A stretch of DNA of 64,000 bases from an uncultured Bacteroidales bacterium (GCA_964516425.1 CAZFAM010000001.1:60865-124864); one strand, 5' to 3'. Shown: positions 41,999 to 59,602, counted from the stretch's first letter. Made by a program: numbers and translations. The notes: a model not told the origin generated them from the letters alone.

Positions 41999-42634
41999 AT
42001 GAAAAAAATTATAGCTTATGTTTTTATTTTACTTTTATGCCTATTTATTTTTTTAAGTATTCAATTCGTGAATGGATACTTTAGTGATCGCGTAAATACT
42101 TATATTGAAAATAAAGGTACCGTTTATACGCAAAATTATTTAGAGCAAGCATTAAGAGAAAGTGTTGTTAATAATATTGATATTGACTCTATGTATTATA
42201 TTCACAAAAATGAAGATGAAGTAAAACAAGTTTTAATTAATACATCACAAATAAATTTAATATTGCAAAAAGTTAATGAAACATTAGATAATGCAATAGT
42301 AAAACTTGAAGATGAAGTATTATCTTTACCATTAGGTATTATTTTAGGCGAAACAATCTTTTCATCCGTTGGACCAAATATTGAGTTAAAAGTTTATCCA
42401 GTTGGCAGTTACACATGTGATGTGTTGAGTTCCATTCAAGAATATGGCATTAATAATTCATTATTTGAAATATATATACAAGTTATAATCAAAATTGAAA
42501 CAATTATTCCTTTAAGAAGCAGCACACAAGAAGTGGAATGTCATATTCCATTAGTAATGCAAATATTACAAGGCGATGTCCCTAGATATTATTATAATAC
42601 CGATAATTTAGTTCCAGATGTTTATGATAATTAA
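41999..42634 (+). CDS. yunB: sporulation protein YunB-like
   Basis: N-terminal TM and a YunB-family pattern in the central region. Neighbouring genes are NifU-like and cwlD, as in Bacilli. Confidence 0.5.
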   Translation: MKKIIAYVFILLLCLFIFLSIQFVNGYFSDRVNTYIENKGTVYTQNYLEQALRESVVNNIDIDSMYYIHKNEDEVKQVLINTSQINLILQKVNETLDNAIVKLEDEVLSLPLGIILGETIFSSVGPNIELKVYPVGSYTCDVLSSIQEYGINNSLFEIYIQVIIKIETIIPLRSSTQEVECHIPLVMQILQGDVPRYYYNTDNLVPDVYDN

Positions 42635-44111: not shown

Positions 44112-44203
44112 TATTTTTAAAAATATAGTGAAAAAATGAATAAAGTATGGTATAATATTTTATATTAATGCGAAGTTATTTTAGTCTTAGAGTTGGTGAA
44201 AAT

Positions 44204-44656
44204 ATGCAAAAAGAAATTTTAATAAATAGTTCAGAAGAAATGATAGCTTTAGGTGAAAAGATAGGTCTTAATAGTTTTCCAAATATGTTAATAACAATGC
44301 AAGGAGATTTAGGAGCTGGTAAAACAACTATGACTAAGGGTATTGCAAAGGGGCTTGGAGTTGCAGGAGTTGTTAATTCACCCACATTTACGATTATGAA
44401 AATATATGAAGGTCGTTTGACATTATTTCATTTAGATGTTTATCGAATTGAAAATCCGATAGATGACTTTGAATTAGAAGAATATTTTGAAGATGGTGGT
44501 GTTTGTGTTATTGAGTGGGCTAATCAAGTTGCATCATTATTGCCTAAAGAAAGAATGAATATCCAAATATTTGATCTTGGAAATAATCAAAGAAAAGTTA
44601 TTATTAATAGTGAAAATGAACAATATATAAAAGTAATTTTAGAGGTATCCAAATGA
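44204..44656 (+). CDS. tsaE: tRNA t6A biosynthesis ATPase TsaE
   Basis: P-loop GDLGAGKTT. About 150 aa, at the head of the tsaE-tsaB-rimI-tsaD cluster. Confidence 0.85.
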   Translation: MQKEILINSSEEMIALGEKIGLNSFPNMLITMQGDLGAGKTTMTKGIAKGLGVAGVVNSPTFTIMKIYEGRLTLFHLDVYRIENPIDDFELEEYFEDGGVCVIEWANQVASLLPKERMNIQIFDLGNNQRKVIINSENEQYIKVILEVSK

Positions 44657-45228
44657 AAACAATGATTTTAGATACATCCACAAATCTATTGTACATTAGT
44701 TTTGTGTTTGATGATAAAGTAATATATGAAGTTAAATCAGAAGGATTAAATAATCATTCTGATAATTTACTAAAAAAAATAGAAGAAGGGTTACATCAAT
44801 GTTCTCTTCAAGTGAAAGATTTTGAACGATTTGTTATTGGTATTGGTCCAGGAGCATATACAGGGTTACGTGTGAGTTTAGCAGTGGCCAAAATGTTTGC
44901 TTGGACTTTAAATTTACCATTATATACAATAAGTAGTTTGGATTTATTAACTAGCGGTGTTAAAGAAAATGGTAAATATGCGATATGTTTTAAAGCTAAA
45001 AAAGATTATAGTTACTTTAAGACAATGTCAGTTAATAATGGAACGCGTGTTTTTTCACAAGAAGAATTTATTGCCAATGAAGAATTAGAGAAAAAAATCA
45101 GTTTTAAAGAATATAAAAAAATCACAAATAATGATATTGCAATTGATGTGTTAAATATTAAGGAAACACAATTAAAGTTAGTAGATGAAATCCATGCATT
45201 AGAACCAAATTATTTGCGAGCTTGTTAA
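44653..45228 (+). CDS. tsaB: tRNA t6A biosynthesis protein TsaB (YeaZ)
   Basis: Inactive Kae1-like fold (ILDTSTN...GIGPGAYTGLRV). Confidence 0.85.
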   Translation: MKTMILDTSTNLLYISFVFDDKVIYEVKSEGLNNHSDNLLKKIEEGLHQCSLQVKDFERFVIGIGPGAYTGLRVSLAVAKMFAWTLNLPLYTISSLDLLTSGVKENGKYAICFKAKKDYSYFKTMSVNNGTRVFSQEEFIANEELEKKISFKEYKKITNNDIAIDVLNIKETQLKLVDEIHALEPNYLRAC

Positions 45229-45229
45229 A

Positions 45230-45694
45230 ATGAATTACCAATTTAGAGAAATGACAATTGATGACATTGATGATGTTGTTAGTGGGGAAATTAAAGTATT
45301 TGGACATTCATTAGGGTATGATATGATTTATTCTGATTTAACTATTAATCCTTATGCATGTTATATTGTATTGGAAATAGAAAATCAAATACATGGGTAT
45401 TTTGGCTTGTGGGTTACAGATAATGTGGAAATTATAAATTTATATGTTGATGAAGAGTATCAAGGTATGGGATTTGGATCGTTAATGATGAATATGATTA
45501 TTAATGTTTGTGAAATGAGTCATGTAAATAATTTGAGCTTAGAAGTTAGAAAATCAAATCTTAAAGCACAAAACTTATATAAAAAATTTGGTTTGAAGGA
45601 AGTAAGTGTCCGTAAAGATTATTATATTGATAAAGAAAAAAATAGTAAAGAAGATGCCATTTTAATGGTTAAATCTTTTGAGGTGATTAAATGA
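45230..45694 (+). CDS. rimI: ribosomal-protein-alanine N-acetyltransferase (GNAT)
   Basis: GNAT acetyl-CoA motif (VDEEYQGMGFGSLMM). Conserved position between tsaB and tsaD. Confidence 0.8.
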   Translation: MNYQFREMTIDDIDDVVSGEIKVFGHSLGYDMIYSDLTINPYACYIVLEIENQIHGYFGLWVTDNVEIINLYVDEEYQGMGFGSLMMNMIINVCEMSHVNNLSLEVRKSNLKAQNLYKKFGLKEVSVRKDYYIDKEKNSKEDAILMVKSFEVIK

Positions 45695-46644
45695 TAGTAT
45701 TAGGAGTTGAAACAAGTTGTGATGAAACTGCTGTTGCAATTGTGGAAGATGGTAAAAAAGTAATTGCTAGCGTTGTTTATACACAAATAGATATTTTTGA
45801 AAAATATGGAGGGGTAGTTCCCGAGGTTGCTAGTAGAAAACATATTCAAAAAATAACTATTGTTTTTGAGGAGTGTTTAAAACAAGCAAATATGACTCCG
45901 GAAAATATTGATTTAGTAGCTGTTACAACTCATCCAGGTTTAATAGGATCATTGTTAGTTGGAATTAATGCTGCTCATGCATTTGCATTAGCAAATAATA
46001 TTCCTTGTGTTGATGTTAATCATTTGACAGGTCATATTTATGCTAACTATATTGAGAGTGATTTTAATTTTCCTGTTTTAGCGTTAGTTGTAAGTGGTGG
46101 ACATACGGAATTAGTTTTAATGAAAGATCATTATGAATTCGAAGTATTAGGACAAACCTTAGATGATGCTATTGGGGAAGCATATGATAAAGTAGGGCGT
46201 GTTATGAATTTTAATTATCCTGCTGGTAAACCTGTAGATGATGCTGCTCATTTAGGAAAGCATACATATACATTACCAATTTATGAAAGTAAAGATGATT
46301 ATAATTTTAGTTTTTCAGGAATAAAATCAGGAGTTTTAAATTTAGTTAACAAATGTAAAATGAAAAATGAAGAAATTAGAATTAATGATTTAGCATGTAC
46401 TTTCCAAGATACAGTGGTTAATGTATTAGTCAATAAGACTGTTAAAGCTGTACAAGAATTTAATATTAAACATGTTATAGTTGCGGGAGGTGTTGCCGCA
46501 AACCGAGGCTTAAGGGAATATATGAATGAAGCAATATCTAAACTTGATGGAGTAAAGTTAACGTTCCCAAGTTTTAAGTATTGTACAGATAATGCAGTAA
46601 TGATAGCAGTTAGTGGATATTTTAAATATATATTAAAAAAATAG
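45691..46644 (+). CDS. tsaD: tRNA N6-adenosine threonylcarbamoyltransferase TsaD
   Basis: Kae1/TsaD motifs (GVETSCDETAVAI; HLTGHIYAN metal-binding His pair). Confidence 0.9.
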   Translation: MIVLGVETSCDETAVAIVEDGKKVIASVVYTQIDIFEKYGGVVPEVASRKHIQKITIVFEECLKQANMTPENIDLVAVTTHPGLIGSLLVGINAAHAFALANNIPCVDVNHLTGHIYANYIESDFNFPVLALVVSGGHTELVLMKDHYEFEVLGQTLDDAIGEAYDKVGRVMNFNYPAGKPVDDAAHLGKHTYTLPIYESKDDYNFSFSGIKSGVLNLVNKCKMKNEEIRINDLACTFQDTVVNVLVNKTVKAVQEFNIKHVIVAGGVAANRGLREYMNEAISKLDGVKLTFPSFKYCTDNAVMIAVSGYFKYILKK

Positions 46645-46653
46645 GTAGCATTT

Positions 46654-47586
46654 ATGAAGACAAGAGGAAATGTAAAAACATATGAATTAAATAGTCAAGG
46701 CCATTATGTTTTATGTAAAGAAAATGAGCCCATTAATGAATTTGATAATAATGTTAATGAAGAAGTACTATATTCTAATCCTTTTTTATTTAACATTGAA
46801 AAGAGTAATGGTTTTTATGTTTCCAGTATTGAAGATTTTTATTTAAAAGATAATGATAAAACTTATAATATGGGAGAAACTCTTCGTAATATTAATGTTA
46901 AAAAAAGAACAAGGAATAAAATTGTTAAAAAGAATTTTAAGAATTGGAAAAAAGAGATTGACGAAAGAATTAAGTTTGTATTTACAAATGCTAAGTACAA
47001 ATTACAAGAAGCAAATAGTGGTGATGTTATTAATGTGGGCTTTGGAAATAAAATCCTATTATTTATAAGTATTGTTATCGCTTTTTTACTTTTATTTAAC
47101 GTAATAAAAATTGTTCCTCCTTTAATAGGTTATAAAAGAATGATTGCTATTGCGGTTATAGTTGTAGGAATAATAAGCTTGTTATTAAGTATTGTACAGG
47201 CTATTAAAACAAATCAATATTTAAGTCAAATTAAGGTTTATAAGAAGAATATAAAAAAATATGAAAAAGAAGTTAATAAAGCATATTTAAAAAAATATAA
47301 AAAAACATACAAGTATTATAAAAAAGGATTAAAGAAAAAAGTATTATCTATTCCCCCTTTGACAATTGATAAGGTAGTTATAGGTGGGGATAAAATAGAT
47401 TTTATTGAAAAATCAACTATTAAAATTAATGAGAAGTATATGAAAAATATTGTTAAAAAGGAAGGTTTTTTATTTACTTATCATTTGCCCGTCTTTTTTT
47501 CTTATGCATTAAGCATAATAAGTGGTGGGTATTTAATAGTGGAATTAATAATTTGCTTGATAAATTTTATTGCGAAGGGAGAATAA
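46654..47586 (+). CDS. lysine-rich membrane protein (2-3 TM), translationally coupled to the downstream giant coiled-coil gene
   Basis: Hydrophobic segments are separated by K-rich loops. Its stop at 47586 is 3 nt from the next start. Confidence 0.5.
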   Translation: MKTRGNVKTYELNSQGHYVLCKENEPINEFDNNVNEEVLYSNPFLFNIEKSNGFYVSSIEDFYLKDNDKTYNMGETLRNINVKKRTRNKIVKKNFKNWKKEIDERIKFVFTNAKYKLQEANSGDVINVGFGNKILLFISIVIAFLLLFNVIKIVPPLIGYKRMIAIAVIVVGIISLLLSIVQAIKTNQYLSQIKVYKKNIKKYEKEVNKAYLKKYKKTYKYYKKGLKKKVLSIPPLTIDKVVIGGDKIDFIEKSTIKINEKYMKNIVKKEGFLFTYHLPVFFSYALSIISGGYLIVELIICLINFIAKGE

Positions 47587-47589
47587 ATT

Positions 47590-50500
47590 ATGGCAACAAA
47601 AAAAGAAGATACAAAAACTGCAACTTCAGTATTGAAAAAAAGGACTTCACCAGAAGATGGTGTAGCTACTAAAAGTACCTCAGCGTTAAAGAAAAGAGCA
47701 ATGCCTGATGCAAGTGCTGCTGTAAAAGATAATCCTACATTAAAAAAACGAACAGCTCCAGATGAAAATAAAGAAAGTTCTGTTTTAAAGAAAAGAACAG
47801 CACCAACCGAAGAAAAAGCAACGTCTATTTTAAATAAAAGAGTTGCTCCAGATGAAAATAAGGAAAGTTCTGTTTTAAAGAAAAGAACAGCACCAAGCGA
47901 AGACAAATCTGCGTCTATCTTAAAAAAGAGAGTTACTCCAGATGAAGGTAAGGAAAGTTCTGTTTTAAAGAAAAGAGTTTCACCAGTGGATGACATTACT
48001 TCATCAAGCTCTGTTTTAGCAAAAAAGAAAATAGAAAATGATGATTCGGAAAAAGTTTCTTCTGGAAAAAGTTCCTTAGATAAAATGCGTGAGCGAATTG
48101 CAGCTCAAAAAAAATTAGAACAAAATATGATGACACAACAAGTTCTTCGAAATCAAGAAAAAGATGGTTTACGTTCTAAATTAAATAAATTAAATAAAGA
48201 ACTTGCGGAAGAAGAAGTTATTGATACGCCAAAACAAAATATTAATTTCGACTTAAAGAGCGAAGCTTTAGAAACACAAAACAAGAAATTGAAACAAGAT
48301 GCTGAAAAATTAAAGAATCAATTACAGGCACTAATGACATTAGAATTTATGGATTTGAAAGTTTTAGATCCAAATAACTTAACATTGTCAAATGAATTTG
48401 TGGAAGCAATTAATAGCATTAAAACGCAAGTAGAATCTCAAAAAGATAAAGAAGAGCAGTCTTTAAAAGATGAATTACAATCATTGCAACTTGAACTTGA
48501 TAATTTACGTGCTAAAAATGAAGAGGCTAAAAAAGCAAGTGTTGTTATAAAGAGAGTTGCTGCTCAAACACAAAAAGCTTTAGATGAAGCTAAGAAAGCT
48601 ATTGAAGAACAAGAATCAAATGAAGTACGTAATTTTAAAGAAGAAATTCATAATCTTGAAACACAATTATTTAATAAAGAACAAGAATTAAAATCTCTTC
48701 AACAAGAAAAATCTACAATTGTGAAAGATAATGAAAAAGCAATTGCTTTATTAAAGAAATCACTTGAAAAAGAAATCGAAAATTTAAATAATAAAATTAA
48801 ATTACAAGATGATGACATTACTTTGAAAAATGATTTAAATGTTAAGTTACAAAATGAAACTTCTAAGTTTGAAGAGCAAATCTCATTATTGGAACAAAAG
48901 GTTAAAGAACTAGAAGAAAAAGGTAATAAAGATTTAGTTATTATTCAAGAAAAAGAACAATTGGAAAAGCGTTTAGAAGAACAAGCTGCTAAAATTGATA
49001 GTTTATTATTAGAATATCAAAAACAATTAGATGCAAAAGATAAAGAAATTGATGAATTACGTAATACAATTGTTACAAAAGAAAATGCATTAGCAAATTC
49101 TATCTCTAAAGATGAACTACTTGCTAAAGAAACTGAAATTTCATCATTAAAAGAACAATTAGATAATAGTATATCTAAAGATGAACTACTTGCTAAAGAA
49201 ACTGAAATTTCATCATTAAAAGAACAATTAGATAATAGTATATCTAAAGATGAACTACTTACTAAAGAAACTGAAATTTCATCATTAAAAGAACAATTAG
49301 ACAATAGTATATCTAAAGAAGAATTAAATAATAAAAATGATGAAATTGAAAGTTTAAAACAAGAGATTAAGGATTTAAATAAACAAATTAGTTCTGGAGT
49401 TAATGAAGAAAATTCTGTATTGGTTAAAGACTTACAAGATAAATGTGATCAGTATCAAAATTTATTATTAAGTGAAAGAAATAGTCATTTACAAGTTGAA
49501 CAAAAGTTATGTAATGATTTAGACAATTATAAAAATGAAATAAATGAGTTACAATCTAAAATTACATCTATGAGTTCTGATTATAGTCTTAATAGACTTC
49601 ACAATCAAATTGAGGCTATAGAATCTTATATTAATGATTTAAAGAATAATTCTCATAATGCTATTACAAATAATGCATACACTGAATATTATGATAAATT
49701 AATTGTTGCTTATAGAAATCAGGAAGAAAAAACATTAACAGAAATTAAGCGTCGCAATAATATTTTAAAATTATTACGTGATGAAAAAATTAAAGTTGCG
49801 GAAGTATTAAAACAAAATGGTAAAAATATTTCTTCTTTTGAAAAGCAAATTGATGAAATTAATGCGGTTATAAATTCTAATATTGAAGAATTACAATTAG
49901 ATAATTTACAAGATGTTGAACAACAAATCATTGCAAGCATTAAAGATGAATTAATGCAATATTGTGACAACATTAAAAATGAAGCTACAAAAGAATTAGA
50001 AAGAATAAACCAAAAATATGACTCTTCAAAATCAGTATCTGATTTAATTAATAATTATAATAACGATTATGAGCATATGATTAAAGCTTATGGAAATGAA
50101 GTTTCAAAATTGAATTTAGAACGCTCAATAAACAAAAGCCAAAATGTAGAAAATGTTATTGAAGAAAAATTGTTAATGGTAGAAAAACAGTATCGTATTA
50201 CTACTTTAGAAAGAGACAAAAAATTCAATGAAGTAATGGATAGGATACGTAAACAAAATTTTGAAATTGTAAGCGAAGAAATTAATAATCCATATATTTC
50301 TGTTGTTGGAAAAGAATATATTCGTAGCTTAAATCAGTACGCTACTATTAAGAAAAATATTTTAGATAAGTTAGAATTTGTTAAAACGCAATATAATAAC
50401 AATATTGAAAACATTAAAAACGAAGAGAATGATATAAATAAATTTAATGACAATATTAAAGAAAGTATTGCAATTCTTAATAATCAAACTGATTTAACTG

Positions 50501-51417
50501 AAGAAGATGTTAATAAGAAAAATGAATTAATGTCACAATTAAGTATTAATGAAGAAAAAATTAATCATCTATATCAATATGGTTATAATGTTTTAAAAGA
50601 CGAAATGGAAAAATCAGTCAAAAAATTAGAGCATGAATATGCTTTAATAATAGATGAAGAAAATCATTTGCGTGAGTTGTATGAAAAACGTGAACAAGAA
50701 GCTAAAAAAAGATTGGAATTAGAAAAAGCTAAAGAAGATCAAAGTGCACAAGAAAATGCAATTAAACAACTTAACGAATATCGATATATTGAAGAAGAAG
50801 CTGAAAGAATAATTGAAAGTATTCAAGAAAAACGTGAAAGAATTCATGAACAAAAAGTTTTAACAATTGAACCTAAAGAAGTAGTTTTTGAAAAAACAGA
50901 AGTTAAAAATGTTATTAATAAGGATATTAATTCTGTAGATTATGATAGTATTAATCAATTACAAAGTGATATTTATTCTTTGACATTTAAATTGGGTGAA
51001 TTGAATAGCCAAGAAGAAGAAACTTTAAAAACAATAGAACGTTATAAGACATATCAAAAACAAAGTACTTCACATCATGAAATTGTTAAATATATGGAAT
51101 GTGTAAAACAATATTATGCTTTATCTGAAACAATCAAAACTAAAAAAGCAGAATTAGAAAAGATTGATGAAAAAACTGATAAAAAAGCATTTAAAGTTAA
51201 AAGAGCAGAATATAAGAGTTTAGATAACAAGATAGTTTATTATGCAAAACAAATAAAATATTTAAATAAAAAGCCAGTTGTTAGTGAATATGTTAAAGTA
51301 GCAACAATTGTTAAAGAATTAGAAGAAAAAGTAAATAATATCAATAATGAAAAAGATAGTATTAATATTGAAATTAATAAAAAGCAATTACAAATACAAT
51401 CTTTAAAAAATAAATAA
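47590..51417 (+). CDS. giant (1275 aa) coiled-coil protein with N-terminal Lys-rich 15-aa repeats and internal 23-aa tandem repeats
   Basis: Uninterrupted ORF with Glu/Lys/Leu-rich heptad-like composition throughout. The N-terminus carries about 8 copies of SVLKKRTAP(D/S)E(N/D)KES. Three and a third copies of DNSISKDELLAKETEISSLKEQL are encoded by a 69-bp DNA tandem repeat. Confidence 0.7.
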   Translation: MATKKEDTKTATSVLKKRTSPEDGVATKSTSALKKRAMPDASAAVKDNPTLKKRTAPDENKESSVLKKRTAPTEEKATSILNKRVAPDENKESSVLKKRTAPSEDKSASILKKRVTPDEGKESSVLKKRVSPVDDITSSSSVLAKKKIENDDSEKVSSGKSSLDKMRERIAAQKKLEQNMMTQQVLRNQEKDGLRSKLNKLNKELAEEEVIDTPKQNINFDLKSEALETQNKKLKQDAEKLKNQLQALMTLEFMDLKVLDPNNLTLSNEFVEAINSIKTQVESQKDKEEQSLKDELQSLQLELDNLRAKNEEAKKASVVIKRVAAQTQKALDEAKKAIEEQESNEVRNFKEEIHNLETQLFNKEQELKSLQQEKSTIVKDNEKAIALLKKSLEKEIENLNNKIKLQDDDITLKNDLNVKLQNETSKFEEQISLLEQKVKELEEKGNKDLVIIQEKEQLEKRLEEQAAKIDSLLLEYQKQLDAKDKEIDELRNTIVTKENALANSISKDELLAKETEISSLKEQLDNSISKDELLAKETEISSLKEQLDNSISKDELLTKETEISSLKEQLDNSISKEELNNKNDEIESLKQEIKDLNKQISSGVNEENSVLVKDLQDKCDQYQNLLLSERNSHLQVEQKLCNDLDNYKNEINELQSKITSMSSDYSLNRLHNQIEAIESYINDLKNNSHNAITNNAYTEYYDKLIVAYRNQEEKTLTEIKRRNNILKLLRDEKIKVAEVLKQNGKNISSFEKQIDEINAVINSNIEELQLDNLQDVEQQIIASIKDELMQYCDNIKNEATKELERINQKYDSSKSVSDLINNYNNDYEHMIKAYGNEVSKLNLERSINKSQNVENVIEEKLLMVEKQYRITTLERDKKFNEVMDRIRKQNFEIVSEEINNPYISVVGKEYIRSLNQYATIKKNILDKLEFVKTQYNNNIENIKNEENDINKFNDNIKESIAILNNQTDLTEEDVNKKNELMSQLSINEEKINHLYQYGYNVLKDEMEKSVKKLEHEYALIIDEENHLRELYEKREQEAKKRLELEKAKEDQSAQENAIKQLNEYRYIEEEAERIIESIQEKRERIHEQKVLTIEPKEVVFEKTEVKNVINKDINSVDYDSINQLQSDIYSLTFKLGELNSQEEETLKTIERYKTYQKQSTSHHEIVKYMECVKQYYALSETIKTKKAELEKIDEKTDKKAFKVKRAEYKSLDNKIVYYAKQIKYLNKKPVVSEYVKVATIVKELEEKVNNINNEKDSINIEINKKQLQIQSLKNK
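47761..47990 (+). repeat. 90-bp tandem repeat (about 2.6 copies), in-frame, encoding paired 15-aa KKR motifs
   Basis: 47761-47850 and 47851-47940 are about 90% identical, and 47941.. is a partial third copy. Confidence 0.8.
49096..49332 (+). repeat. 69-bp near-perfect tandem repeat (3 full copies plus a partial), in-frame
   Basis: Copies at 49096-49164, 49165-49233 and 49234-49302 differ by only 1-3 nt. A partial fourth copy follows. Confidence 0.9.
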
Positions 51418-51441: not shown

Positions 51442-52101
51442 ATGAAAATAATCATTTCTAAGGAAATCACTTCTAAGTTACCTTCTTTTAATGTTTATGC
51501 CTATTCTATGAATGTTAAAGTAGAAAGTAGTAAAATAATTGAAGACAAAATTAAACAATTAGAAGTAGATATACCAAAGATGTATGATTTAGAACACGTG
51601 TTAGCTATTCCTTCAATAAAAAATGCTAGAGACGGATATAAAAAATTAGGAAAAGATCCTAGTAGATATCGTTTGGCATGTGAATCTTTATATCGTAGAT
51701 TAGTGAAAAATAAAGGATTATATTTTATAAATAATGTTGTTGATGCAGGAAATGTATTATCAATTAAACTTGCAAAATCAACTGCTGTGTTAGATTATGA
51801 TAAATTAATTGGTGATATAAAAATACGCATTGGTACAGAAGAAGATATTTATTATGGTATAAATCGTGGTTTAATAAATGTTACTAATATCCCCTTATAT
51901 GTTGATGATATTTCTCCTTTTGGTTCTCCAACGAGTGATACTGAAAGAACATCAGTTTCTAATGACACACAAAAAATATTATTAATGATTATTTGTTTTG
52001 ATAATTTGGATAATGAAAAAATAGAGAATATTTCATTAAATATTTTTGAAAAATATGCGTATGCAAATAATATTCAAAAAATAGAAATAATTAAAGAATA
52101 G
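51442..52101 (+). CDS. stand-alone B3/4 (PheT-like tRNA-binding/editing) domain protein
   Basis: Matches the B3_4 domain pattern (KNARDGYKKLGKDPSRYRLACESLYRRL...FINNVVDAGNVLS). Length 219 aa. Confidence 0.65.
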   Translation: MKIIISKEITSKLPSFNVYAYSMNVKVESSKIIEDKIKQLEVDIPKMYDLEHVLAIPSIKNARDGYKKLGKDPSRYRLACESLYRRLVKNKGLYFINNVVDAGNVLSIKLAKSTAVLDYDKLIGDIKIRIGTEEDIYYGINRGLINVTNIPLYVDDISPFGSPTSDTERTSVSNDTQKILLMIICFDNLDNEKIENISLNIFEKYAYANNIQKIEIIKE

Positions 52102-52110
52102 AGGTATATC

Positions 52111-53742
52111 ATGGGAGAAATTTCAAATTTTATAAAAACCATAATGGAAGACGATTTAAAAAGTGGAAAAGTGAAAGAGATTGTAACAAGATTTCCACCT
52201 GAACCCAATGCTTATTTACATATTGGACATGCTAGAGCATTAATTACTAATTTTGAATTGGCAAAAAGCTTTGGTGGTTATACAAATCTTCGTTTTGATG
52301 ACACAAATCCCGCAAAAGAAGATGAAGAATTTGTGGAAGGAATTAAAAAAGATATTGAATGGTTAGGATATCATCCTAAAAATGTATATTTTGGATCTGA
52401 TTATTTTGATAAAACATATGATTTAGCTATACAATTAATTAAAAAAGGTTTAGCATATGTTTGTGATTTGAGTCAACAAGAAATGAGTGAATATCGTGGA
52501 ACATTAACAGAACCAGGAAAGAACTCTCCATATCGTAATCGTACTGTTGAAGAAAATTTACAATTATTTGAGAATATGAAAAATGGTATGTATGATGAGG
52601 GTACTAAAGTATTAAGGGCAAAAATTGATATGTCACATCCAAATATTAATATGAGAGATCCTGTATTATATCGAATTATAAAAATTAAGCATCATCGACA
52701 AGGAAATAAATGGTGTATATATCCAATGTATGATTTTGCTCATCCATTGCAAGATTCATTTGAAGGTATTACGCATTCATTATGTAGTTTAGAATATGAT
52801 AACCATAGAATATTGTATGATTGGGTAATTGAAAATTGTGAAGTTCCTCATCAACCACATCAATATGAATTTGGTAGATTAAATATAACTAACACAATAA
52901 TGAGTAAAAGATATTTAAAACAATTAGTGGAAAGTGGAAAAGTAATAGGGTATGATGATCCTCGTATGCCTACTTTAACAGGTATGAGAAGACGCGGTAT
53001 TACACCAGAAGCTATTAAAGCATTTATATTATCAACCGGTTTATCAAGAATTAATTCAACGGTTGAAGGTGATATGCTAGATCATTTTGTTAGAGAAGAT
53101 TTGAAATTAAAATGTAATAGAATAATGGCTGTAAAAGATCCATTAAAAATTACTATTACAAATTATGAAGATGGAAAAGTTGAATATTTAAATGCATTAA
53201 ATAACCAAGAAAATGAAGAATTAGGTTCTAAAAAGATTAGTTTTTCAAAGCATTTATATATTGAACGTGAAGATTTTGCGGTTGAAAAGCCTAATAGACA
53301 ATTTAAACGTTTAGCTTTAGGTTTAGAAGTTAGATTGATGCATGCTTATTTTATTAAAGCTAATGAAGTTGTGTATGATGAAAATGGTAAAATTTCTGAA
53401 GTTTTATGTACATATGATGAAAAAACATTAAGTGGTACTGGATTTAATGAAAGAAAACCAAATGGTACTATTGGTTTTGTGGATGCATCAAGTGCAATGA
53501 AAGCAACATTTAATTTATTTGAACCACTAATTATTGATTGTGATGATCAGTCAACATTTCTAGACCATATTAATCCAAACTCATGGACAACTATGGATGG
53601 ATACGTTGAAAAAGGTAACTATCAAATTTTAGATAAATTCCAATTCATTCGTGATGGATATTATACTGTTGATAGTGATACAAATGAAGATAAGTTAGTA
53701 TTTAATCGTATTGTTGCTTTAAAATCAACATTTAAAAAATAG
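52111..53742 (+). CDS. glnS: glutaminyl-tRNA synthetase
   Basis: Class I HIGH (PEPNAYLHIGHA) and KMSKS (IMSKR) motifs. About 543 aa with a GlnRS-type C-terminal anticodon-binding region. Confidence 0.85.
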   Translation: MGEISNFIKTIMEDDLKSGKVKEIVTRFPPEPNAYLHIGHARALITNFELAKSFGGYTNLRFDDTNPAKEDEEFVEGIKKDIEWLGYHPKNVYFGSDYFDKTYDLAIQLIKKGLAYVCDLSQQEMSEYRGTLTEPGKNSPYRNRTVEENLQLFENMKNGMYDEGTKVLRAKIDMSHPNINMRDPVLYRIIKIKHHRQGNKWCIYPMYDFAHPLQDSFEGITHSLCSLEYDNHRILYDWVIENCEVPHQPHQYEFGRLNITNTIMSKRYLKQLVESGKVIGYDDPRMPTLTGMRRRGITPEAIKAFILSTGLSRINSTVEGDMLDHFVREDLKLKCNRIMAVKDPLKITITNYEDGKVEYLNALNNQENEELGSKKISFSKHLYIEREDFAVEKPNRQFKRLALGLEVRLMHAYFIKANEVVYDENGKISEVLCTYDEKTLSGTGFNERKPNGTIGFVDASSAMKATFNLFEPLIIDCDDQSTFLDHINPNSWTTMDGYVEKGNYQILDKFQFIRDGYYTVDSDTNEDKLVFNRIVALKSTFKK

Positions 53743-53770
53743 ACAATTCTTTTTTAAGAATTGTTTTTGT
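53743..53770 (+). terminator. rho-independent terminator after glnS
   Basis: Perfect stems acaattctt and aagaattgt flank the loop tttt and are followed by ttttgtt. Confidence 0.6.
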
Positions 53771-53784
53771 TAGGAGGGGATATT

Positions 53785-55899
53785 TTGAAATCGGATAATA
53801 AATTAAATGAGCGTCAACAATTAGCTGCATCACAATTTAGTGGTCCAATAATGGTATTTGCGGGTGCAGGTAGTGGAAAAACAAGAACTTTAACATATCG
53901 TGTTGCGAATATGATTGAAGCTGGAATTCCTTCAAATAACATTTTAGCAATCACATTTACAAATAAAGCTACAAATGAAATGAAAGAAAGATTGTATGAT
54001 TTAGTTGGTAGTAGTATTAAATTTACTACTATTTGTACATTTCATTCCTTGTGTGCTCGTATTCTTCGTCAAGAAATTCATTTATTAGGTTATAAAAAGA
54101 ATTTTGATATTATTGATGAAGAAGATCAGTTAAAAGTAGTTACAGATACTTTAAACGATTTAAATATTGATAAAAAGAAATTCACTCCTAAACAAATGCG
54201 AAAAATGATTAATTTTAATAAATGTTTTCATATGAAACCTTCTTCGCAAATAGAACAAAATATATTCTTGCGTTATGAAGAAATGATGAAAGAATTAAAT
54301 CTTTTGGATTTTGAAGATTTATTAATTAAAACATATGAATTATTTATTAAAAATCCAGATACTTTAGAAAAATATCGTGCAAAATATCAATATATATTAG
54401 TAGATGAATTTCAAGATACTAATTTAATTCAGTATCGCATAGTTAAATTATTAGCATTGAATTCCAGAAATATATTTGTAGTTGGTGATGATGATCAATC
54501 AATCTATAGTTTTAGGGGAACAAATTATGAAAATATGCAATTGTTTAAAAGGGATTTTCCTGAACATCAAATTATAATTCTTGATAAAAATTATCGCTCG
54601 ACACAAACAATTCTTGATGGTTCTAATCGCTTAATTAAAAATAATAATAATCGTCAAGATAAAGAAATGTATTCTGATATTAAGGGATCGCAAAATGATG
54701 TCACTATTATAACTTTAAATGATGAAAGATTCGAAGTTGATTATGTTATAGGACAAATTAAAGAAGGAATAAGATACCATAATAAAAAATATAGTGATTT
54801 TGCAATTTTATATCGTTCTAGTGTTATTGGTAGAAACTTTGAATTAGGATTCATTAATAATAATATGCCATATCGTATTTTTGGTGGTATTAGTTATTTA
54901 AGAAGAAAAGAAATTAAGGATATAATTGCCTATTTAAAATTTATTATTGATAATGATGATATAATGAGCTTTAAAAGAATTGTTAATGAACCAGCAAGAG
55001 GTATTGGTTTAAAAACGATTCAGGATTTATTAAAGTTGAAAAGAGAATATAGGTTAACAATTTTTGATGCTATAGAATCATTTAAATCAATTAGTGCTTC
55101 AAAGTATAAAGCCTTAAAATTTTTTAAAGATATGATTTTGGGGTTACGTATTAAAATGGATCAATTAACATTAGTAGAATTATTTGATGAGTTAATGGAT
55201 ATAACTGATTATATTTCTATTTATGAAGATGATGAAAACTTCGAAGATCGTAAACAAAATTTATTAGAATTTAAAAGTATCTTAAGTAATATAGATAATG
55301 ATGGTGAAGTTGCATCAAATGCGGATAAATTAATGTTTGCATTTGATGAAGCAGTTTTATCCGATGATAGAGGACATAATCAAATTCAAGATGAAAACTG
55401 TATAACAATATCTACCGTTCATTCTGTTAAAGGATTAGAATTTGATACTGTTTTTGTGGTTGCATTTGAAAATGGTATTTTTCCTTCAATGATGAGTAGT
55501 TTGGAAAATGATGAAGAAGAGGAAAGAAGAATAGCTTATGTTGCTGTTACAAGAGCTAAAAATAAACTTTATCTAACAAGTGCGAAACAACGATTAATAT
55601 ATGGTGGTATTAATCGTAATAAGCCATCAAAGTTTTTATTAGAATTTGCGGGTGCAAATCCACTTTCTAAAAAAATTGATGATGAATATAATATTCGCCA
55701 AGTTCCTGTTGAAACGCAAGAGACAACTGTTTCTACAGATAAAAATTATAAAGTTGGTGACCATATTATTCATAAAGTTTATGGAGAGGGTATAATTGTA
55801 TCTTTGGAAAATACTACAGGAATGATTTGTTTTACATCTCAAGGACAAATTAAAACTTTTGATATAACTCATCCCGCAATTCAAAAAAAGATTAGTTAA
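53785..55899 (+). CDS. pcrA: ATP-dependent DNA helicase PcrA/UvrD (SF1)
   Basis: Walker A AGAGSGKTRTLT and SF1 motifs (DEFQDTN, VGDDDQSIYSFRG, VTRAK). Likely TTG start 53785 after RBS aggagggg. Confidence 0.9.
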   Translation: MKSDNKLNERQQLAASQFSGPIMVFAGAGSGKTRTLTYRVANMIEAGIPSNNILAITFTNKATNEMKERLYDLVGSSIKFTTICTFHSLCARILRQEIHLLGYKKNFDIIDEEDQLKVVTDTLNDLNIDKKKFTPKQMRKMINFNKCFHMKPSSQIEQNIFLRYEEMMKELNLLDFEDLLIKTYELFIKNPDTLEKYRAKYQYILVDEFQDTNLIQYRIVKLLALNSRNIFVVGDDDQSIYSFRGTNYENMQLFKRDFPEHQIIILDKNYRSTQTILDGSNRLIKNNNNRQDKEMYSDIKGSQNDVTIITLNDERFEVDYVIGQIKEGIRYHNKKYSDFAILYRSSVIGRNFELGFINNNMPYRIFGGISYLRRKEIKDIIAYLKFIIDNDDIMSFKRIVNEPARGIGLKTIQDLLKLKREYRLTIFDAIESFKSISASKYKALKFFKDMILGLRIKMDQLTLVELFDELMDITDYISIYEDDENFEDRKQNLLEFKSILSNIDNDGEVASNADKLMFAFDEAVLSDDRGHNQIQDENCITISTVHSVKGLEFDTVFVVAFENGIFPSMMSSLENDEEEERRIAYVAVTRAKNKLYLTSAKQRLIYGGINRNKPSKFLLEFAGANPLSKKIDDEYNIRQVPVETQETTVSTDKNYKVGDHIIHKVYGEGIIVSLENTTGMICFTSQGQIKTFDITHPAIQKKIS

Positions 55900-55935
55900 G
55901 TGAAGTTGTTGAAACGACAATTTCACTTTTTTCTT
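55898..55935 (+). terminator. rho-independent terminator after pcrA
   Basis: 14-bp stems aagtgaagttgttg and cgacaatttcactt (2 wobbles) are followed by tttttt. Confidence 0.55.
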
Positions 55936-55980: not shown

Positions 55981-57303
55981 ATGCACAAAATAGAAGAAAC
56001 GTTAAAAAATAAATTTCAAAATGATGATACTTTTTTATATTATGATATTAAAAGCGATGATCATTTATCATTAAGATTATATTATATTTTTGGTTTAGTT
56101 GATAATGATAAAATCAGTGATTTGATTATTAAGCCAGTTACATTATTTAATACAGAAAATTTATGTATGATAATTAAAAATTATAATATTGATGAAATAA
56201 TAAAATCACTTTTAGATGGAAATGTAATTGTATTCGATTATAATAATAACACTATAAAATCTATTGATGTCAAAAAGCATTATTTAAGATCAGTTTCAGA
56301 ACCTGATAATGAAAAAGTAGTAAAAGGTCCTAAAGAAGGATTTATCGAAAATATTATTAGTAATATTAATTTGATTCGAACTAGATTGCGAACTAACCAG
56401 CTAAAATTTGAGTTTCTACAAAATCAAAATCCAATAATTGCAATTTGCTATATAGATGAAGCAGTAGATAAAAATGTTTTACGAAAACTTAAAAATGAAA
56501 TAAAAAAATATAATTTTGAAAATATAAATATAAATCATATTAAAGAACAATTAAAAAATAATAAAAAAGATTTATTCAATACAGTTGGTGATAGTGGAAG
56601 AGTAGATGTTTGTACATACAAATTATTAGAAGGAAAAATTGTTATACTAGTAGATGGGTCACCATTATGCTTATATTTGCCTTTTACATTTTCAGAAAAT
56701 TTTCAAACAGTTGATGATTATTATTTAAGTTTTTCGTTTGCATCAATTAATAGAGTTTTACGATTTATTAGTTTTATAATTTCTATAATATTACCTGGAT
56801 TTTATGTTGCTGTTTTAAAATTTCACCAAGAATTGTTACCAGTAGAATTAATGATTAGTATTTCAGCTTCAAGAATTGGAGTACCATTCTCTACTTTTTT
56901 TGAATGTGTTTTATTATTGACTGCTTTTGAAATTCTAAGAGAAGCAGGAACCAAAATATCTTCTCTTTTAGGATCGTCATTAAGCATTGTTGGAGGGTTA
57001 GTTATTGGTCAAGCAACAGTTGAAGCTAGAATTATAAGTACTAGTGTTGTTATTATTGTTGCAATTTCATCAATAACAACATTAATTAATTCAAAGTTAA
57101 GTGGCCCAATTATATGTTATCGCTATATCGTTTTAGTGATGGGGGCTTTAGTAGGAATATATGGCATTTTGGCATCTATCATTTTTATGATTACAAAACT
57201 TATTAAAATGGATTCTTTTGGTGAATATTATATTAAAGATATTTTACCTTTTAAATTGAAAAGATATAAAAAAACATATACGAGGTTTCCTGATGAAATG
57301 TAA
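55981..57303 (+). CDS. spore germination protein, GerA-family A subunit
   Basis: GerAA-type architecture with a soluble N-domain and a C-terminal 4-5 TM region. Contains GDSGRVDVCTYKLLEGKIVILVDGSPLCLYLPFTF. Confidence 0.8.
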   Translation: MHKIEETLKNKFQNDDTFLYYDIKSDDHLSLRLYYIFGLVDNDKISDLIIKPVTLFNTENLCMIIKNYNIDEIIKSLLDGNVIVFDYNNNTIKSIDVKKHYLRSVSEPDNEKVVKGPKEGFIENIISNINLIRTRLRTNQLKFEFLQNQNPIIAICYIDEAVDKNVLRKLKNEIKKYNFENININHIKEQLKNNKKDLFNTVGDSGRVDVCTYKLLEGKIVILVDGSPLCLYLPFTFSENFQTVDDYYLSFSFASINRVLRFISFIISIILPGFYVAVLKFHQELLPVELMISISASRIGVPFSTFFECVLLLTAFEILREAGTKISSLLGSSLSIVGGLVIGQATVEARIISTSVVIIVAISSITTLINSKLSGPIICYRYIVLVMGALVGIYGILASIIFMITKLIKMDSFGEYYIKDILPFKLKRYKKTYTRFPDEM

Positions 57304-58327
57304 AATATTAATTTTATTTTTTTTAATTCTTACAGGATGTACAACTATAGAAATTGAAGAATATGCTATAATTGCGGGTATTGGATTTGATTATCAAAAT
57401 GATGAATATATCGTGACATATGAAATATATGATGATGAATCAGGTGATGTTACTGCATTAACATCAACAGTGGTTACGGGAATAGGATTAGGAGTTGAAA
57501 AAGCAATTGTGAATACAGAATTATTAATAGAGCAAAAAACATATTTAAATCATTGTCGTATCATTATTTTTAGTAATAATATAGTCAATGAACAAATGAA
57601 GGAAGTCATTAATTATTTAGTACATGATCCTAGAATGCGATCGTTGGAATATGTTGTTATAAGTGATAGTCAATCACCTCAAGATCTATTGAATAGGAAA
57701 GATAAAGAAAACGTATTGTGTTTGAATCTTTATAAAGATATTAAAAAGAATAATAATTCATTCGGAATATATAGTGATTGTAAGTTTTCCAAAATTGTTA
57801 ATTTGACGCAAAATAATCGAAAAACAACAGTTATACCATCCATTAAATATGATCAAACAATTGTTTTTGATGGTGCTGCTTTATTTGACCGTTTTACTAT
57901 AAAACAAAAAATTAGTCAAGAAGAAGTAATGTTAATTCAGATGTTAGATAATAAGTTAGTAGAAGGTCTTTATAATTATAATAGCATTTCTTATTATATA
58001 AAAAGATTCAAAAGTAAAAAAAAATATAGCAATAATAAAATGACTATTGAATTATTTTTTTCTTTAACTGTTTATGATGGCAATAATCAGGAAAAATTAA
58101 TAACTGATTTTAATATTGGCGTTAAAGAACAAGTAACAAATCTTTTACAAAAATATCAAATTTTAAAAATAGATCCTTTTGGAGTGCTAGATTATATATT
58201 TAATTATCATCCCTTTATTTTTAATAAACAAAGTAATATATGGGAGTTTTATAAACAATTAAATATTGAAGTCATCGTTAATACACAAATAATTGCCACT
58301 GGATTTATTGAAAAAGTAATGGAGTGA
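57293..58327 (+). CDS. spore germination lipoprotein, GerAC-family C subunit
   Basis: Lipobox LTGC. Overlaps the A gene and has the typical Ger(x)C size. Confidence 0.7.
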   Translation: MKCKILILFFLILTGCTTIEIEEYAIIAGIGFDYQNDEYIVTYEIYDDESGDVTALTSTVVTGIGLGVEKAIVNTELLIEQKTYLNHCRIIIFSNNIVNEQMKEVINYLVHDPRMRSLEYVVISDSQSPQDLLNRKDKENVLCLNLYKDIKKNNNSFGIYSDCKFSKIVNLTQNNRKTTVIPSIKYDQTIVFDGAALFDRFTIKQKISQEEVMLIQMLDNKLVEGLYNYNSISYYIKRFKSKKKYSNNKMTIELFFSLTVYDGNNQEKLITDFNIGVKEQVTNLLQKYQILKIDPFGVLDYIFNYHPFIFNKQSNIWEFYKQLNIEVIVNTQIIATGFIEKVME

Positions 58328-58518
58328 ATATGTATTTTTTATGTGCTTTAATTATATCAGTTATTGAAATAATACCTTTAATTAAACATAAGCAAAATAA
58401 TTACTTTCTTTTTTGCTTGTTTTTAATTATTATTTGTGGATTGTTTTATATATTTAAAGATTATTATCCAAGTATTTCCACAATAATATTAAAATTATTA
58501 GGAGGTAATAATGGATAA
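58324..58518 (+). CDS. small 2-TM membrane protein (64 aa) inserted between ger C and B genes
   Basis: Overlapping start and stop coupling on both sides; hydrophobic. Possibly a GerD/accessory-like subunit. Confidence 0.4.
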   Translation: MNMYFLCALIISVIEIIPLIKHKQNNYFLFCLFLIIICGLFYIFKDYYPSISTIILKLLGGNNG

Positions 58519-59602
58519 TGTTCGTTTCCGTCATGTATTTTCACTTGGTGTTTTATATGCTTTAGGAACTGTATTAATAAGTATAGCTTCTAGAGGCTAT
58601 CATGCGTGGCAGGGTTTAATTTGTGCTTTTGTTTTTGCAATACCAGTTTATTATTTATATATTAAATTATTAAAATATTTTCCAAATAAAAATTTATTTG
58701 AGATTATAGAACTTTGTTTTGGAAAAATTATTTCTAAAATTATTATAATAATGTATATTATATTTTTATGGTATAAGTCAGGAAGAATAATATTTTCATA
58801 TATTGATTTAATTATAACTAGTAATCAATTAGCTTTTGATTATAAACAATTAATGTTACTTCTTAATTTAATACTATTAGGTTATATATTAAAAAGTGGT
58901 TTAAATAGTATAACCCGTTTATCACAAATATGTTTTATCATAACAGTTGTGCTTATAAGCTCCTTATTTGTTGTGGGAATTGGAAATATGGATTTAACGA
59001 ATATATTGCCAATTTACCCAATTATTTATGGAGATTTTCAAAAAAATATCTTATATTTCTTTATTCAACCATTTATTGAGTTGACAATATTGTTTAATTT
59101 TATTTGTAAAATTAAAAATTATTCTGAACAAAAGAAAGTTTTTTTCTCTATAGCCATTGTATCTTTTGTTATTATAATAGTTATCATAATCCAAACAATT
59201 TGTATACTGGGAAAAGATTATACTCTAATATTAAATTATCCTTATTATTCTTGTATTGCCACAATTAATGTTAATAAACTAATAGCAAGGTTTGAAACTA
59301 TTAGTATAATTATATTTTATGTTTGTGCATCAATAAAAGTAATAGTTTTATTGTATTGTATGGAACTTGCTATTTGCACATTATTTAAAAGAAATAGTAA
59401 TGACAAAAAGTATTACTATTTCATAATTTTTATGTCTACTGTATTGTCATTCATTTTGTATGATAATGTTTCCGAGTTAAGAACTATGACAATTTACTAT
59501 TGTATAATAGCAATTATTATGCATATTATAATTCCTTGTTATATTGTATTTTTTAAGAAAAAAAGGTATAATGCTTTAGAAAAAAATAAAAATATGGTAT
59601 AA
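58511..59602 (+). CDS. spore germination protein, GerAB-family B subunit (APC-type permease fold)
   Basis: 10-TM amino-acid-permease-like membrane protein of about 360 aa; final gene of the A-C-B operon. Confidence 0.75.
   Translation: MDNVRFRHVFSLGVLYALGTVLISIASRGYHAWQGLICAFVFAIPVYYLYIKLLKYFPNKNLFEIIELCFGKIISKIIIIMYIIFLWYKSGRIIFSYIDLIITSNQLAFDYKQLMLLLNLILLGYILKSGLNSITRLSQICFIITVVLISSLFVVGIGNMDLTNILPIYPIIYGDFQKNILYFFIQPFIELTILFNFICKIKNYSEQKKVFFSIAIVSFVIIIVIIIQTICILGKDYTLILNYPYYSCIATINVNKLIARFETISIIIFYVCASIKVIVLLYCMELAICTLFKRNSNDKKYYYFIIFMSTVLSFILYDNVSELRTMTIYYCIIAIIMHIIIPCYIVFFKKKRYNALEKNKNMV

Follow-up and report, generated by a model that had tools for sequence, protein, structure and literature searches.

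TipN of Caulobacter crescentus is a membrane-anchored coiled-coil landmark of cell polarity, EzrA (PF06160) is a membrane-anchored, spectrin-like division regulator of the Bacillota, and HMW2 and HMW1 of Mycoplasma pneumoniae are giant coiled-coil proteins of the terminal-organelle cytoskeleton. Coiled-coil-rich proteins (CCRPs) have been described from Helicobacter pylori (Ccrp; PMC2776988) and from cyanobacteria (PMC7002697). The window analysed here, a 64-kb (64,000-nt) stretch of DNA (GCA_964516425.1 CAZFAM010000001.1:60865-124864), carries two adjacent genes, one for a membrane protein of 310 amino acids (aa), called the partner below, and one for a helical protein of 1275 aa, called the giant. 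We propose, tentatively and as a reading that falls somewhat short of an even chance, that the pair is a conserved, lineage-specific structural scaffold docked at the membrane. A membrane-tethered scaffold is the most economical reading because the pairing of the two genes is tight and universal among the loci compared.

Functionally, the pair appears to come nearest to membrane-anchored helical landmarks and regulators, such as TipN and EzrA, and to the coiled-coil-rich class. As with TipN, a large cytoplasmic helical protein without an enzymatic domain would be held by transmembrane (TM) helices, and the system is restricted to one lineage. TipN, however, unites TM segments and coiled coil in one polypeptide, whereas here a pair of coupled genes divides them; the sequences are not similar, the giant also has a basic tail made of repeats and a large helical block that is not a rod, and the host is a Firmicute rather than an alphaproteobacterium. 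The giant is more than twice as long as EzrA, has no TM segment of its own, and no internal repeat homology was found in it. With the CCRPs and intermediate filament-like proteins (crescentin, FilP/Scy, Ccrp), a class recognised by architecture and not by homology, it shares a long, helical, heptad-bearing, K/E/L-rich, non-enzymatic and lineage-specific sequence; the long heptad rod that defines this class is seen in the giant as the predicted helix at aa 270-443 and its periodicity. In contrast to members of the class, it has a co-conserved polytopic partner, and about half of it is predicted to form packed shorter helices and not a rod. SMC, Rad50 and RecN resemble it in the size and composition of their helical arms, but it lacks their ATPase motifs, head and hinge. 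The likeness to HMW2 and HMW1 is compositional only (charged, proline-containing low-complexity regions, in a lineage of low GC that is part of the Bacilli or close to them); homology is not detected, and the host possesses sporulation genes and an N-acetylmuramoyl-L-alanine amidase, a cell-wall enzyme. Streptococcal M-like fibrils are also helical with in-frame tandem repeats of varying number, but the giant has neither a signal peptide nor LPXTG, is under purifying selection and lies in a putative housekeeping operon. The pair is outside every sequence-defined family, and is set apart by its split anchor, its repeat-built tail and its non-rod helical block.

The features of the pair and its surroundings are collected in Table 1. 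With the TAA stop codon of the partner gene at 47584-47586 and the start codon (ATG) of the giant gene at 47590, the 3-nt separation given by the initial annotation is exact. Since a strong Shine-Dalgarno sequence (GAAGGGAG) lies inside the partner open reading frame (ORF) and only 3 nt separate the genes, translation of the two is probably coupled. The giant is not a chance ORF, because a frame of 1275 codons in DNA of 27% GC has been kept at full length among relatives with 20–81% identity.

Table 1. Features of the gene pair, its products and the surrounding gene string (window positions unless another locus is named).
Feature	Position	Strand	Remarks
Partner gene	46654..47586	+	310-aa three-pass membrane protein, orphan family
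Cytoplasmic N-terminal domain (predicted), partner aa 1-129	46654..47040	+	Alignments, AlphaFold2, charge counts
TM hairpin, partner aa 130-185	47041..47208	+	TM1 ~130-152, TM2 ~160-185
Lys-rich cytoplasmic loop (predicted), partner aa 186-271	47209..47466	+	25 K/R vs 8 D/E
Third TM helix, partner aa 272-307	47467..47574	+	Hydropathy, model; invariant Y293
Shine-Dalgarno of giant gene	47574..47581	+	Within 3' end of partner ORF, 8 nt 5' of ATG; read from the sequence
Giant gene	47590..51417	+	1275-aa soluble all-alpha protein, orphan family
Basic tail, giant aa 1-160	47590..48069	+	Proline-punctuated, net about +13, 8 L-K-K-R-x-x-P-x-[D/E] motifs
Tandem array 1	47740..47976	+	In frame; 45-bp unit x 5.3, or 90-bp unit x 2.6 at 88%
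Head, giant aa 160-350	48067..48639	+	Most conserved block of the family; model and alignment
Single predicted helix of 174 residues, giant aa 270-443	48397..48918	+	Best coiled-coil rod candidate
Tandem array 2	49101..49374	+	In frame; 69-bp unit x 3.2 at 97% (49101-49323) and a diverged fourth unit
Helical block, giant aa 610-1087	49417..50850	+	Helices of 30-117 residues with short breaks, pLDDT mostly 80-90
Predicted disordered linker, giant aa 1088-1117	50851..50940	+	pLDDT below 50 (model residues 948-975), gap-rich alignment
C-terminal domain, giant aa 1118-1275	50941..51414	+	Four helices, pLDDT about 88-92, net basic
Promoter-like site, extended -10	44128..44156		5' of tsaE
tsaE-tsaB-rimI-tsaD	44168..46644	+	Synteny anchor; tsaD ends 9 nt 5' of partner; Pfam labels of orthologues
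Stand-alone B3_4-domain gene	51442..52101	+	B3/B4 domain of phenylalanyl-tRNA synthetase (PheRS) beta subunit
glnS	52111..53742	+	Glutaminyl-tRNA synthetase, tRNA-synt_1c
pcrA-type helicase	53761..55899	+	Downstream end of string
Terminator-like hairpin	55898..55928	+	Sole one in string, after pcrA
cvpA genes (other loci)	L004 4151-4687; L005 574-1110; L008 6429-6962; L010 2630-3163; L012 4435-4956; L013 4473-4988		

The order tsaE-tsaB-rimI-tsaD-[cvpA]-partner-giant-B3_4-glnS-pcrA is found in 11 of the 11 loci with upstream DNA (the window, L001, L004, L005, L006, L007, L008/L009, L010, L012, L013 and L014), even at about 20% identity. A synteny comparison had been suggested in the initial annotation, and the membrane gene and the giant gene are paired in all 11. 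In the related loci the two genes are separated by 2–22 nt, and in the distant loci the upstream proteins align with the partner of the window and share its invariant motifs. A short form of the giant (P0021, 740 aa) occupies the equivalent position, beside a partner of 317 aa.

A word-indexed search of 5.8 billion proteins returns 21 relatives of the giant (30–81% identity) and 9–10 of the partner, and an exhaustive HMMER scan of 1.84 billion representatives with the giant profile gives 78 matches at E<=1e-3, 33 of them at E<=1e-10. Most giants are 1073–1295 aa long, with a short form of 726–740 aa. A distant branch (P0057, P0060, P0064, P0066, P0069 and P0074; 1288–1673 aa, about 20% identity) retains LQKLREQIMAQKKLE, ERNSHYxVEQKLFKDLD and RIIESQE, and the head motifs LxKxRExIxAQKKLE and LxYxxxKVxD survive at this distance. 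The retrieved source names all read ‘hypothetical protein [Bacilli bacterium]’ and come from metagenome-assembled genomes (MAGs). The species-representative genomes that carry the pair are MAGs of uncultured Bacilli, from the human gut of the Hadza, from ‘Lapin’ isolates (presumably rabbit) and from another source. Scans of JGI metagenomes gave one distant locus and no close relatives, and no relatives were found among IMG/VR sequences, INPHARED phages or PLSDB plasmids. The pair is found only in a group of uncultured low-GC Bacilli of gut and environmental origin. Relative to locus L006, where the partner is 97% identical, the ratio of nonsynonymous to synonymous substitution rates (dN/dS, omega) is 0.17 for the partner. 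For the giant it is 0.13, measured over the first 521 codons, of which the repeat tail gives 0.24 and the remainder 0.10; the control gene tsaD gives 0.05. By these ratios both genes are functional and under purifying selection. The short forms of 726–740 aa retain the C-terminal domain and lack most of the middle block; P0021 also has the tail, the head and some of the rod, a layout which suggests that the two ends of the giant are its indispensable parts.

The N-terminal domain of the partner carries two motifs that are invariant in the family, NPF (aa 42-44) and SIEDFY (aa 58-63), and a basic helix (aa 84-122) with the invariant W98. The TM hairpin gives Kyte-Doolittle 19-mer peaks of 2.75 and 3.09, and the loop that follows has a charge of +17 and an invariant YY at aa 221-222. 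Even with homologues of as little as 23% identity included, L39, N42, P43, E60, F62, R78, W98, Y221, Y222 and Y293 do not vary. The AlphaFold2 model (11 homologues; predicted local distance difference test, pLDDT, 73) consists, in order, of a small beta element, the basic helix, the TM hairpin, two short helices and the third TM helix. The helices of the hairpin are modelled at aa 130-147 and 160-227 (pLDDT 82-91), so that TM2 extends into a Lys-rich cytoplasmic helix of about 40 residues. Hydropathy and the positive-inside rule place aa 1-129 and the Lys-rich loop in the cytoplasm, the latter and the former both as predictions. The DNA of the loop contains an imperfect 24-bp tandem repeat (47248-47309, + strand, 2.7 copies, 67% matches), which suggests that this loop also grew via small duplications.

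Neither the partner of the window nor eight partner homologues score above the cut-off of any Pfam or NCBIfam family, and a PDB sequence-profile search with the partner has zero matches. Below threshold there are matches to EMC3/TMCO1 (17.9 bits, cut-off 27.1) and 8xMP (17.5 bits, cut-off 30), and to LeoBC of PADLOC (19.5 bits, E 1e-4) across the region of the TM hairpin and basic helix. They span the TM segment and the Lys-rich helix, recur in at most 2 of the 8 homologues, and are treated as compositional. An identity of the partner as an Oxa1/YidC/EMC3 insertase was rejected, as the profile score is below the curated cut-off.

The giant is rich in K (14%), E (13.5%), L (10.3%) and N (9.2%). 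Nine of its 14 prolines are within the first 132 aa, and after residue 160 there are just 5 Pro and 8 Gly. Because the highest 19-mer Kyte-Doolittle value in the whole protein is only 0.49, it has no signal peptide and no TM segment; together with the lack of LPXTG this upholds its earlier assignment to the cytoplasm. The AlphaFold2 model (aa 141-1275, 18 sequences, pLDDT 70.7, predicted template modelling score, pTM, 0.27) is nearly all helical. Of the tail, which is probably disordered, it covers only aa 141-160, with pLDDT below 50. The head has helices at aa 162-206 and 224-254, then a loop (aa 255-269) in which DLKVLDPNNLTLSN (aa 255-268) forms a conserved non-helical motif, and finally the first part of the long helix. 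Column identity is 62–82% over aa 150-350; conservation is highest in the head and high again from about aa 610-626 to the C-terminus, and the helical block bears the family signature LLSERNSHLQVEQKLC at aa 626-641. Most insertions and deletions fall in three variable regions, aa 1-150, 400-450 and 500-600. The tail and the C-terminus are net basic and the rod net acidic, while the loops of the partner are strongly basic.

The initial annotation described the giant as almost entirely coiled coil, resembling SMC arms or myosin tails. It is indeed almost wholly helical and the rod segment is real, but the 3.5-residue (heptad) periodicity is confined to some stretches, with z of 2.4–4.1 across aa 225-504 and significant values in several later windows, of which the one at aa 785-840 reaches 8.8. 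The C-terminal half of the model has the look of packed bundles of helices and not of a continuous rod, and the likeness to SMC arms and myosin tails is one of composition only.

No function could be assigned to the giant from known families. The window protein has no Pfam match at E<=1, and 13 members of its family have none at E<=0.1; nothing is above the NCBIfam cut-off, PADLOC has zero matches, and PHROGs has none at E<=0.01 (best 14 bits, E 0.065). A PDB sequence-profile search returns coiled-coil noise (haemagglutinin HA2, keratin) at E>=8e-4, and a fold search against PDB has no significant match. A homologue of known function, which the initial annotation had named as a refuting find, is absent from all of these collections. 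A description of the family was not found in the literature.

The scaffold could work as follows. The partner would insert into the cytoplasmic membrane by its three helices, with the conserved N-terminal domain, the basic helix and the +17 loop facing the cytoplasm. The giant, translated off the shared transcript, would remain cytoplasmic and be stoichiometric with the partner, which would dock it to the membrane from the cytoplasmic side by way of either the head (aa 160-350) or the four-helix C-terminal domain. Self-association via the 174-residue helix and the helical-bundle region would then build an extended scaffold that serves the membrane as skeleton, landmark or tether. With its repeated LKKRxxPx[D/E] motifs, the basic and probably disordered tail may be an arm that binds a ligand (a protein or a polyanion) multivalently. 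In-frame tandem duplications alter how many motifs the tail has and how long the variable rod segment is, and leave the frame intact. The physical interaction, oligomerisation, localisation, ligand and timing of expression in this scheme are all inferred. A bolder version, which we regard as unlikely, would make the pair a new class of membrane skeleton or tether, core to a deep branch of uncultured Bacilli because it is retained there in an operon of essential genes; a dedicated polytopic anchor would be joined to a giant that is an evolvable spacer, its rod length and tail valency tuned by in-frame tandem duplication, and whose multivalent basic tail ties a polyanionic structure (the nucleoid, or an RNA/ribosome assembly) to the membrane.

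Several observations weigh against the scaffold. Contact between partner and giant, self-association and filament formation are hypothetical, and the pTM of the monomer model, and with it the confidence in the overall shape of the giant, is low. Heptad periodicity is lacking over aa 477-616 and 1037-1120. The adjacency of the two genes may be frozen gene order, as the whole tsaE to pcrA string is equally conserved. The LKKRxxP motif is missing from the distant branch, so a specific ligand of this motif cannot be a family-wide property. All of the carrier organisms are uncultured.

Among the other explanations, an unlikely one is that the pair organises the division site or cell pole, in a role like that of EzrA, MapZ or TipN but split between two proteins, with the tail contacting FtsZ or another division protein. 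A membrane anchor combined with a long helical cytoplasmic part is consistent with this, and a weak lead is provided by cvpA, which precedes the partner in the distant branches and in L004 and L005, and whose family member yshB lies beside zapA in B. subtilis. The profile evidence points the other way. The initial annotation had named DivIVA, EzrA and SMC as families to be looked for, and none of them has a Pfam match in the window giant or the 13 family members; GpsB and ZapA have none in the 13 members either. EzrA itself was rejected because it has no Pfam match and is not among the PDB sequence and fold matches listed, and because the giant is without a TM helix; DivIVA/GpsB was set aside for want of a Pfam match in the giant family. 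Spectrin-type internal duplication was likewise rejected, since hhalign comparisons among seven segments of the giant give a probability of at most 12.5%. In addition, the gene is outside any dcw or division cluster.

The tail bears on a second alternative, which we consider distinctly unlikely: that the LKKRxxP repeats bind DNA or RNA while the partner holds the other end, so that the pair tethers nucleic acid to the membrane and, relative to it, anchors or spaces the chromosome or a complex for translation or RNA processing. About eight copies of a basic motif had been noticed in the tail, and eight LKKRxxP-type motifs are located there, beginning at aa 14, 32, 51, 65, 80, 95, 110 and 125. 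A logo of 76 instances gives L-K-K-R-x-x-P-x-[D/E], with L-K-K-R-x-x-P as invariant core. The evenly spaced KKR clusters and the net charge of about +13 over the first 165 residues would suit a nucleic-acid ligand, as would a motif valency that varies among relatives. The neighbours tsaEBD (tRNA modification), B3_4, glnS, the helicase gene pcrA and the ligase gene ligA, and the overlap of the giant ORF with the start of B3_4 in some relatives, are also consistent with it. Against this, LKKRxxP as we read it matches neither an SPKK motif nor an AT-hook with its RGRP core, 2–3 acidic residues are present in every unit, the tail of P0015 has a net charge of just +1, and known nucleic-acid-binding domains are not detected in Pfam, NCBIfam or PDB profiles. 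The absence of the motif from the distant branch counts against the tether as well; the tail there is replaced by low-complexity sequence (KEKEKERLAKEK and PKPEPK), with a further conserved segment at the N-terminus, and P0057 and P0066 have PKPEPK and acidic Pro-rich stretches. The family-wide trait of the tail is that it is charged, variable and probably disordered, and not the LKKRxxP motif itself. The idea that the motifs form a phospho-regulated S/T-P array is not upheld: a conserved S/T-P phospho-site is unsupported because the residue preceding the motif proline is S or T in only 31 of the 76 instances.

Both in-frame tandem arrays reported for the giant by the initial annotation are recovered by Tandem Repeats Finder. 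Array 2 encodes aa 504-595, as three near-identical 23-aa units SISKDELLAKETEISSLKEQLDN plus one diverged unit, and lies in a gap-rich, variable part of the family alignment with low pLDDT. Copy number, which had been proposed for comparison between strains, differs among relatives. The tail varies more than any other part of the family's proteins, and within the close branch it has from 0 to 11 copies of the KKRxxP motif. P0002 and P0003 (81% identical) lack exactly one 30-aa (90-bp) tail unit and do not have the tripled 23-aa unit, while in L006 (the 97% strain) the tail is the same as in the window and the contig breaks inside the first 69-bp unit. Two apparently tail-less proteins of 1073 aa, P0010 and P0011, were rejected as real variants and are most likely alternative start calls. 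For P0010 this follows from its length, which equals that of P0005 (1295 aa) minus a 222-aa tail, both being on contigs of 4695 bp; no specific full-length counterpart has been assigned to P0011. Antisense ORFs of 164 aa (47502-47996, - strand) and 95 aa (49017-49304, - strand) overlie the two arrays and are most simply explained as stop-free reverse frames made by the repeats, not as genes.

It is quite improbable that the pair is a sporulation-specific scaffold, made in the cytoplasm of the forespore or mother cell and assembled on a membrane there, such as a coat-basement layer or one that anchors the septum. The housekeeping string is flanked by yunB (41999-42634, + strand) and by a germinant-receptor operon of the gerA/gerAC/spore-permease type (55981-59602, + strand), and by these genes the host, at about 27% GC, is an endospore former. 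YunB is also found upstream in L006 and L007. In distant loci, however, the nearby sporulation genes are outside the conserved block, and no similarity to SpoIVA, SpoVID, SafA or CotE was found in Pfam or NCBIfam. Only 9 nt lie between tsaD and the pair, and B3_4, glnS and pcrA come next, with no terminator in between. Along the whole string the intergenic gaps are 3–24 nt (9–24 nt from the pair to pcrA), and the promoter-like and terminator-like sites at its two ends are consensus matches only. The string from tsaE to pcrA is, on this arrangement, a putative housekeeping operon, and the place of the pair among tsaEBD, glnS and pcrA suggests constitutive, vegetative expression. The link to a sporulating cell made by the initial annotation is therefore not borne out, as the pair is inside a tight housekeeping string whose sole terminator-like site comes after pcrA.

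A very improbable explanation is that the giant is an exported fibril like M protein, or a protein of a phage, mobile element or defence system, with the partner as its dedicated exporter or accessory. Variation in repeat length is typical of such fibrils, and the faint EMC3/TMCO1 and LeoBC matches could point to an exporter; the insertase-like match, however, is found in only 1 of the 8 partner sequences. An LPXTG-anchored surface protein was rejected since the giant has neither a signal peptide nor LPXT[GAN], and it has no TM segment. A phage tape-measure protein was rejected because the only PHROGs match is the one of 14 bits and IMG/VR and INPHARED hold no relatives, and a known anti-phage defence protein because PADLOC has no match for the giant and its fixed housekeeping position is unlike a defence island. 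The lack of plasmid relatives, the strong sequence conservation (omega 0.13) and the fixed chromosomal place among housekeeping genes in all loci also oppose a fibril or mobile origin.

The last alternative, a degenerate SMC/Rad50-type protein, pseudogene or spurious ORF, has a negligible chance and is already refuted: the length and K/E/L-rich helical composition recall SMC arms, but regex motif searches find no Walker A, LSGG, LPXTG (LPXT[GAN]) or CxxC in the giant, ALIIDE at aa 1018 is fortuitous and no convincing Walker B, there is no SMC_N, AAA, Rad50 or hinge-domain match in Pfam (which excludes an SMC/Rad50/RecN ATPase as well as an SMC hinge or zinc hook, and agrees with the earlier remark that Walker motifs are absent), and full-length orthologues at 20–81% identity with a dN/dS of 0.13 show that the gene is no pseudogene.

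If the membrane-docked scaffold is correct, a branch of uncultured Bacilli organises its envelope or nucleoid with a scaffold that has no detectable ancestry in common with EzrA, DivIVA, SMC or the known filament proteins of the coiled-coil-rich kind, and a two-component design of anchor plus giant joins the cytoskeletal solutions of bacteria. Orphan giant helical proteins are common in bacteria, and the value of this case is in the strict pairing, deep conservation and operon context rather than in a demonstrated mechanism. Two new family signatures result, NPF...SIEDFY...W...YY for the partner and LxKxRExIxAQKKLE, LLxERNSHxxVEQKLxKDLD and ERIIES for the giant, which could seed Pfam entries and mark the lineage.

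Some further features of the surroundings were observed. In the more distant lineages the partner gene is directly preceded by cvpA (Colicin_V production, PF02674), a gene that the 64-kb window lacks altogether; the ancestral block may have been cvpA-partner-giant-B3_4. In L013 (JGI sample 3300001682) a Cpn60/GroEL-family gene (2998-4464) is inserted between tsaD and cvpA, and the block is otherwise unchanged. The B3_4 gene is invariably located between the giant gene and glnS (in the window, and at 10152-10805 in L012 and 10802-11488 in L013). In some relatives its start overlaps the stop of the giant gene, which suggests that it is coupled to the giant as well; the role of its product is possibly tRNA-related. 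All related loci have glnS. Many Bacilli are without GlnRS and use the GatCAB route, and glnS may be a useful marker of this lineage. A second orphan giant ORF (23278-26901, + strand) encodes 1207 aa and has no Pfam match even at E<=0.05. It has a hydrophobic segment at aa 11-31 and a composition that is not helical-repeat-like, and is probably a membrane-anchored extracellular protein.

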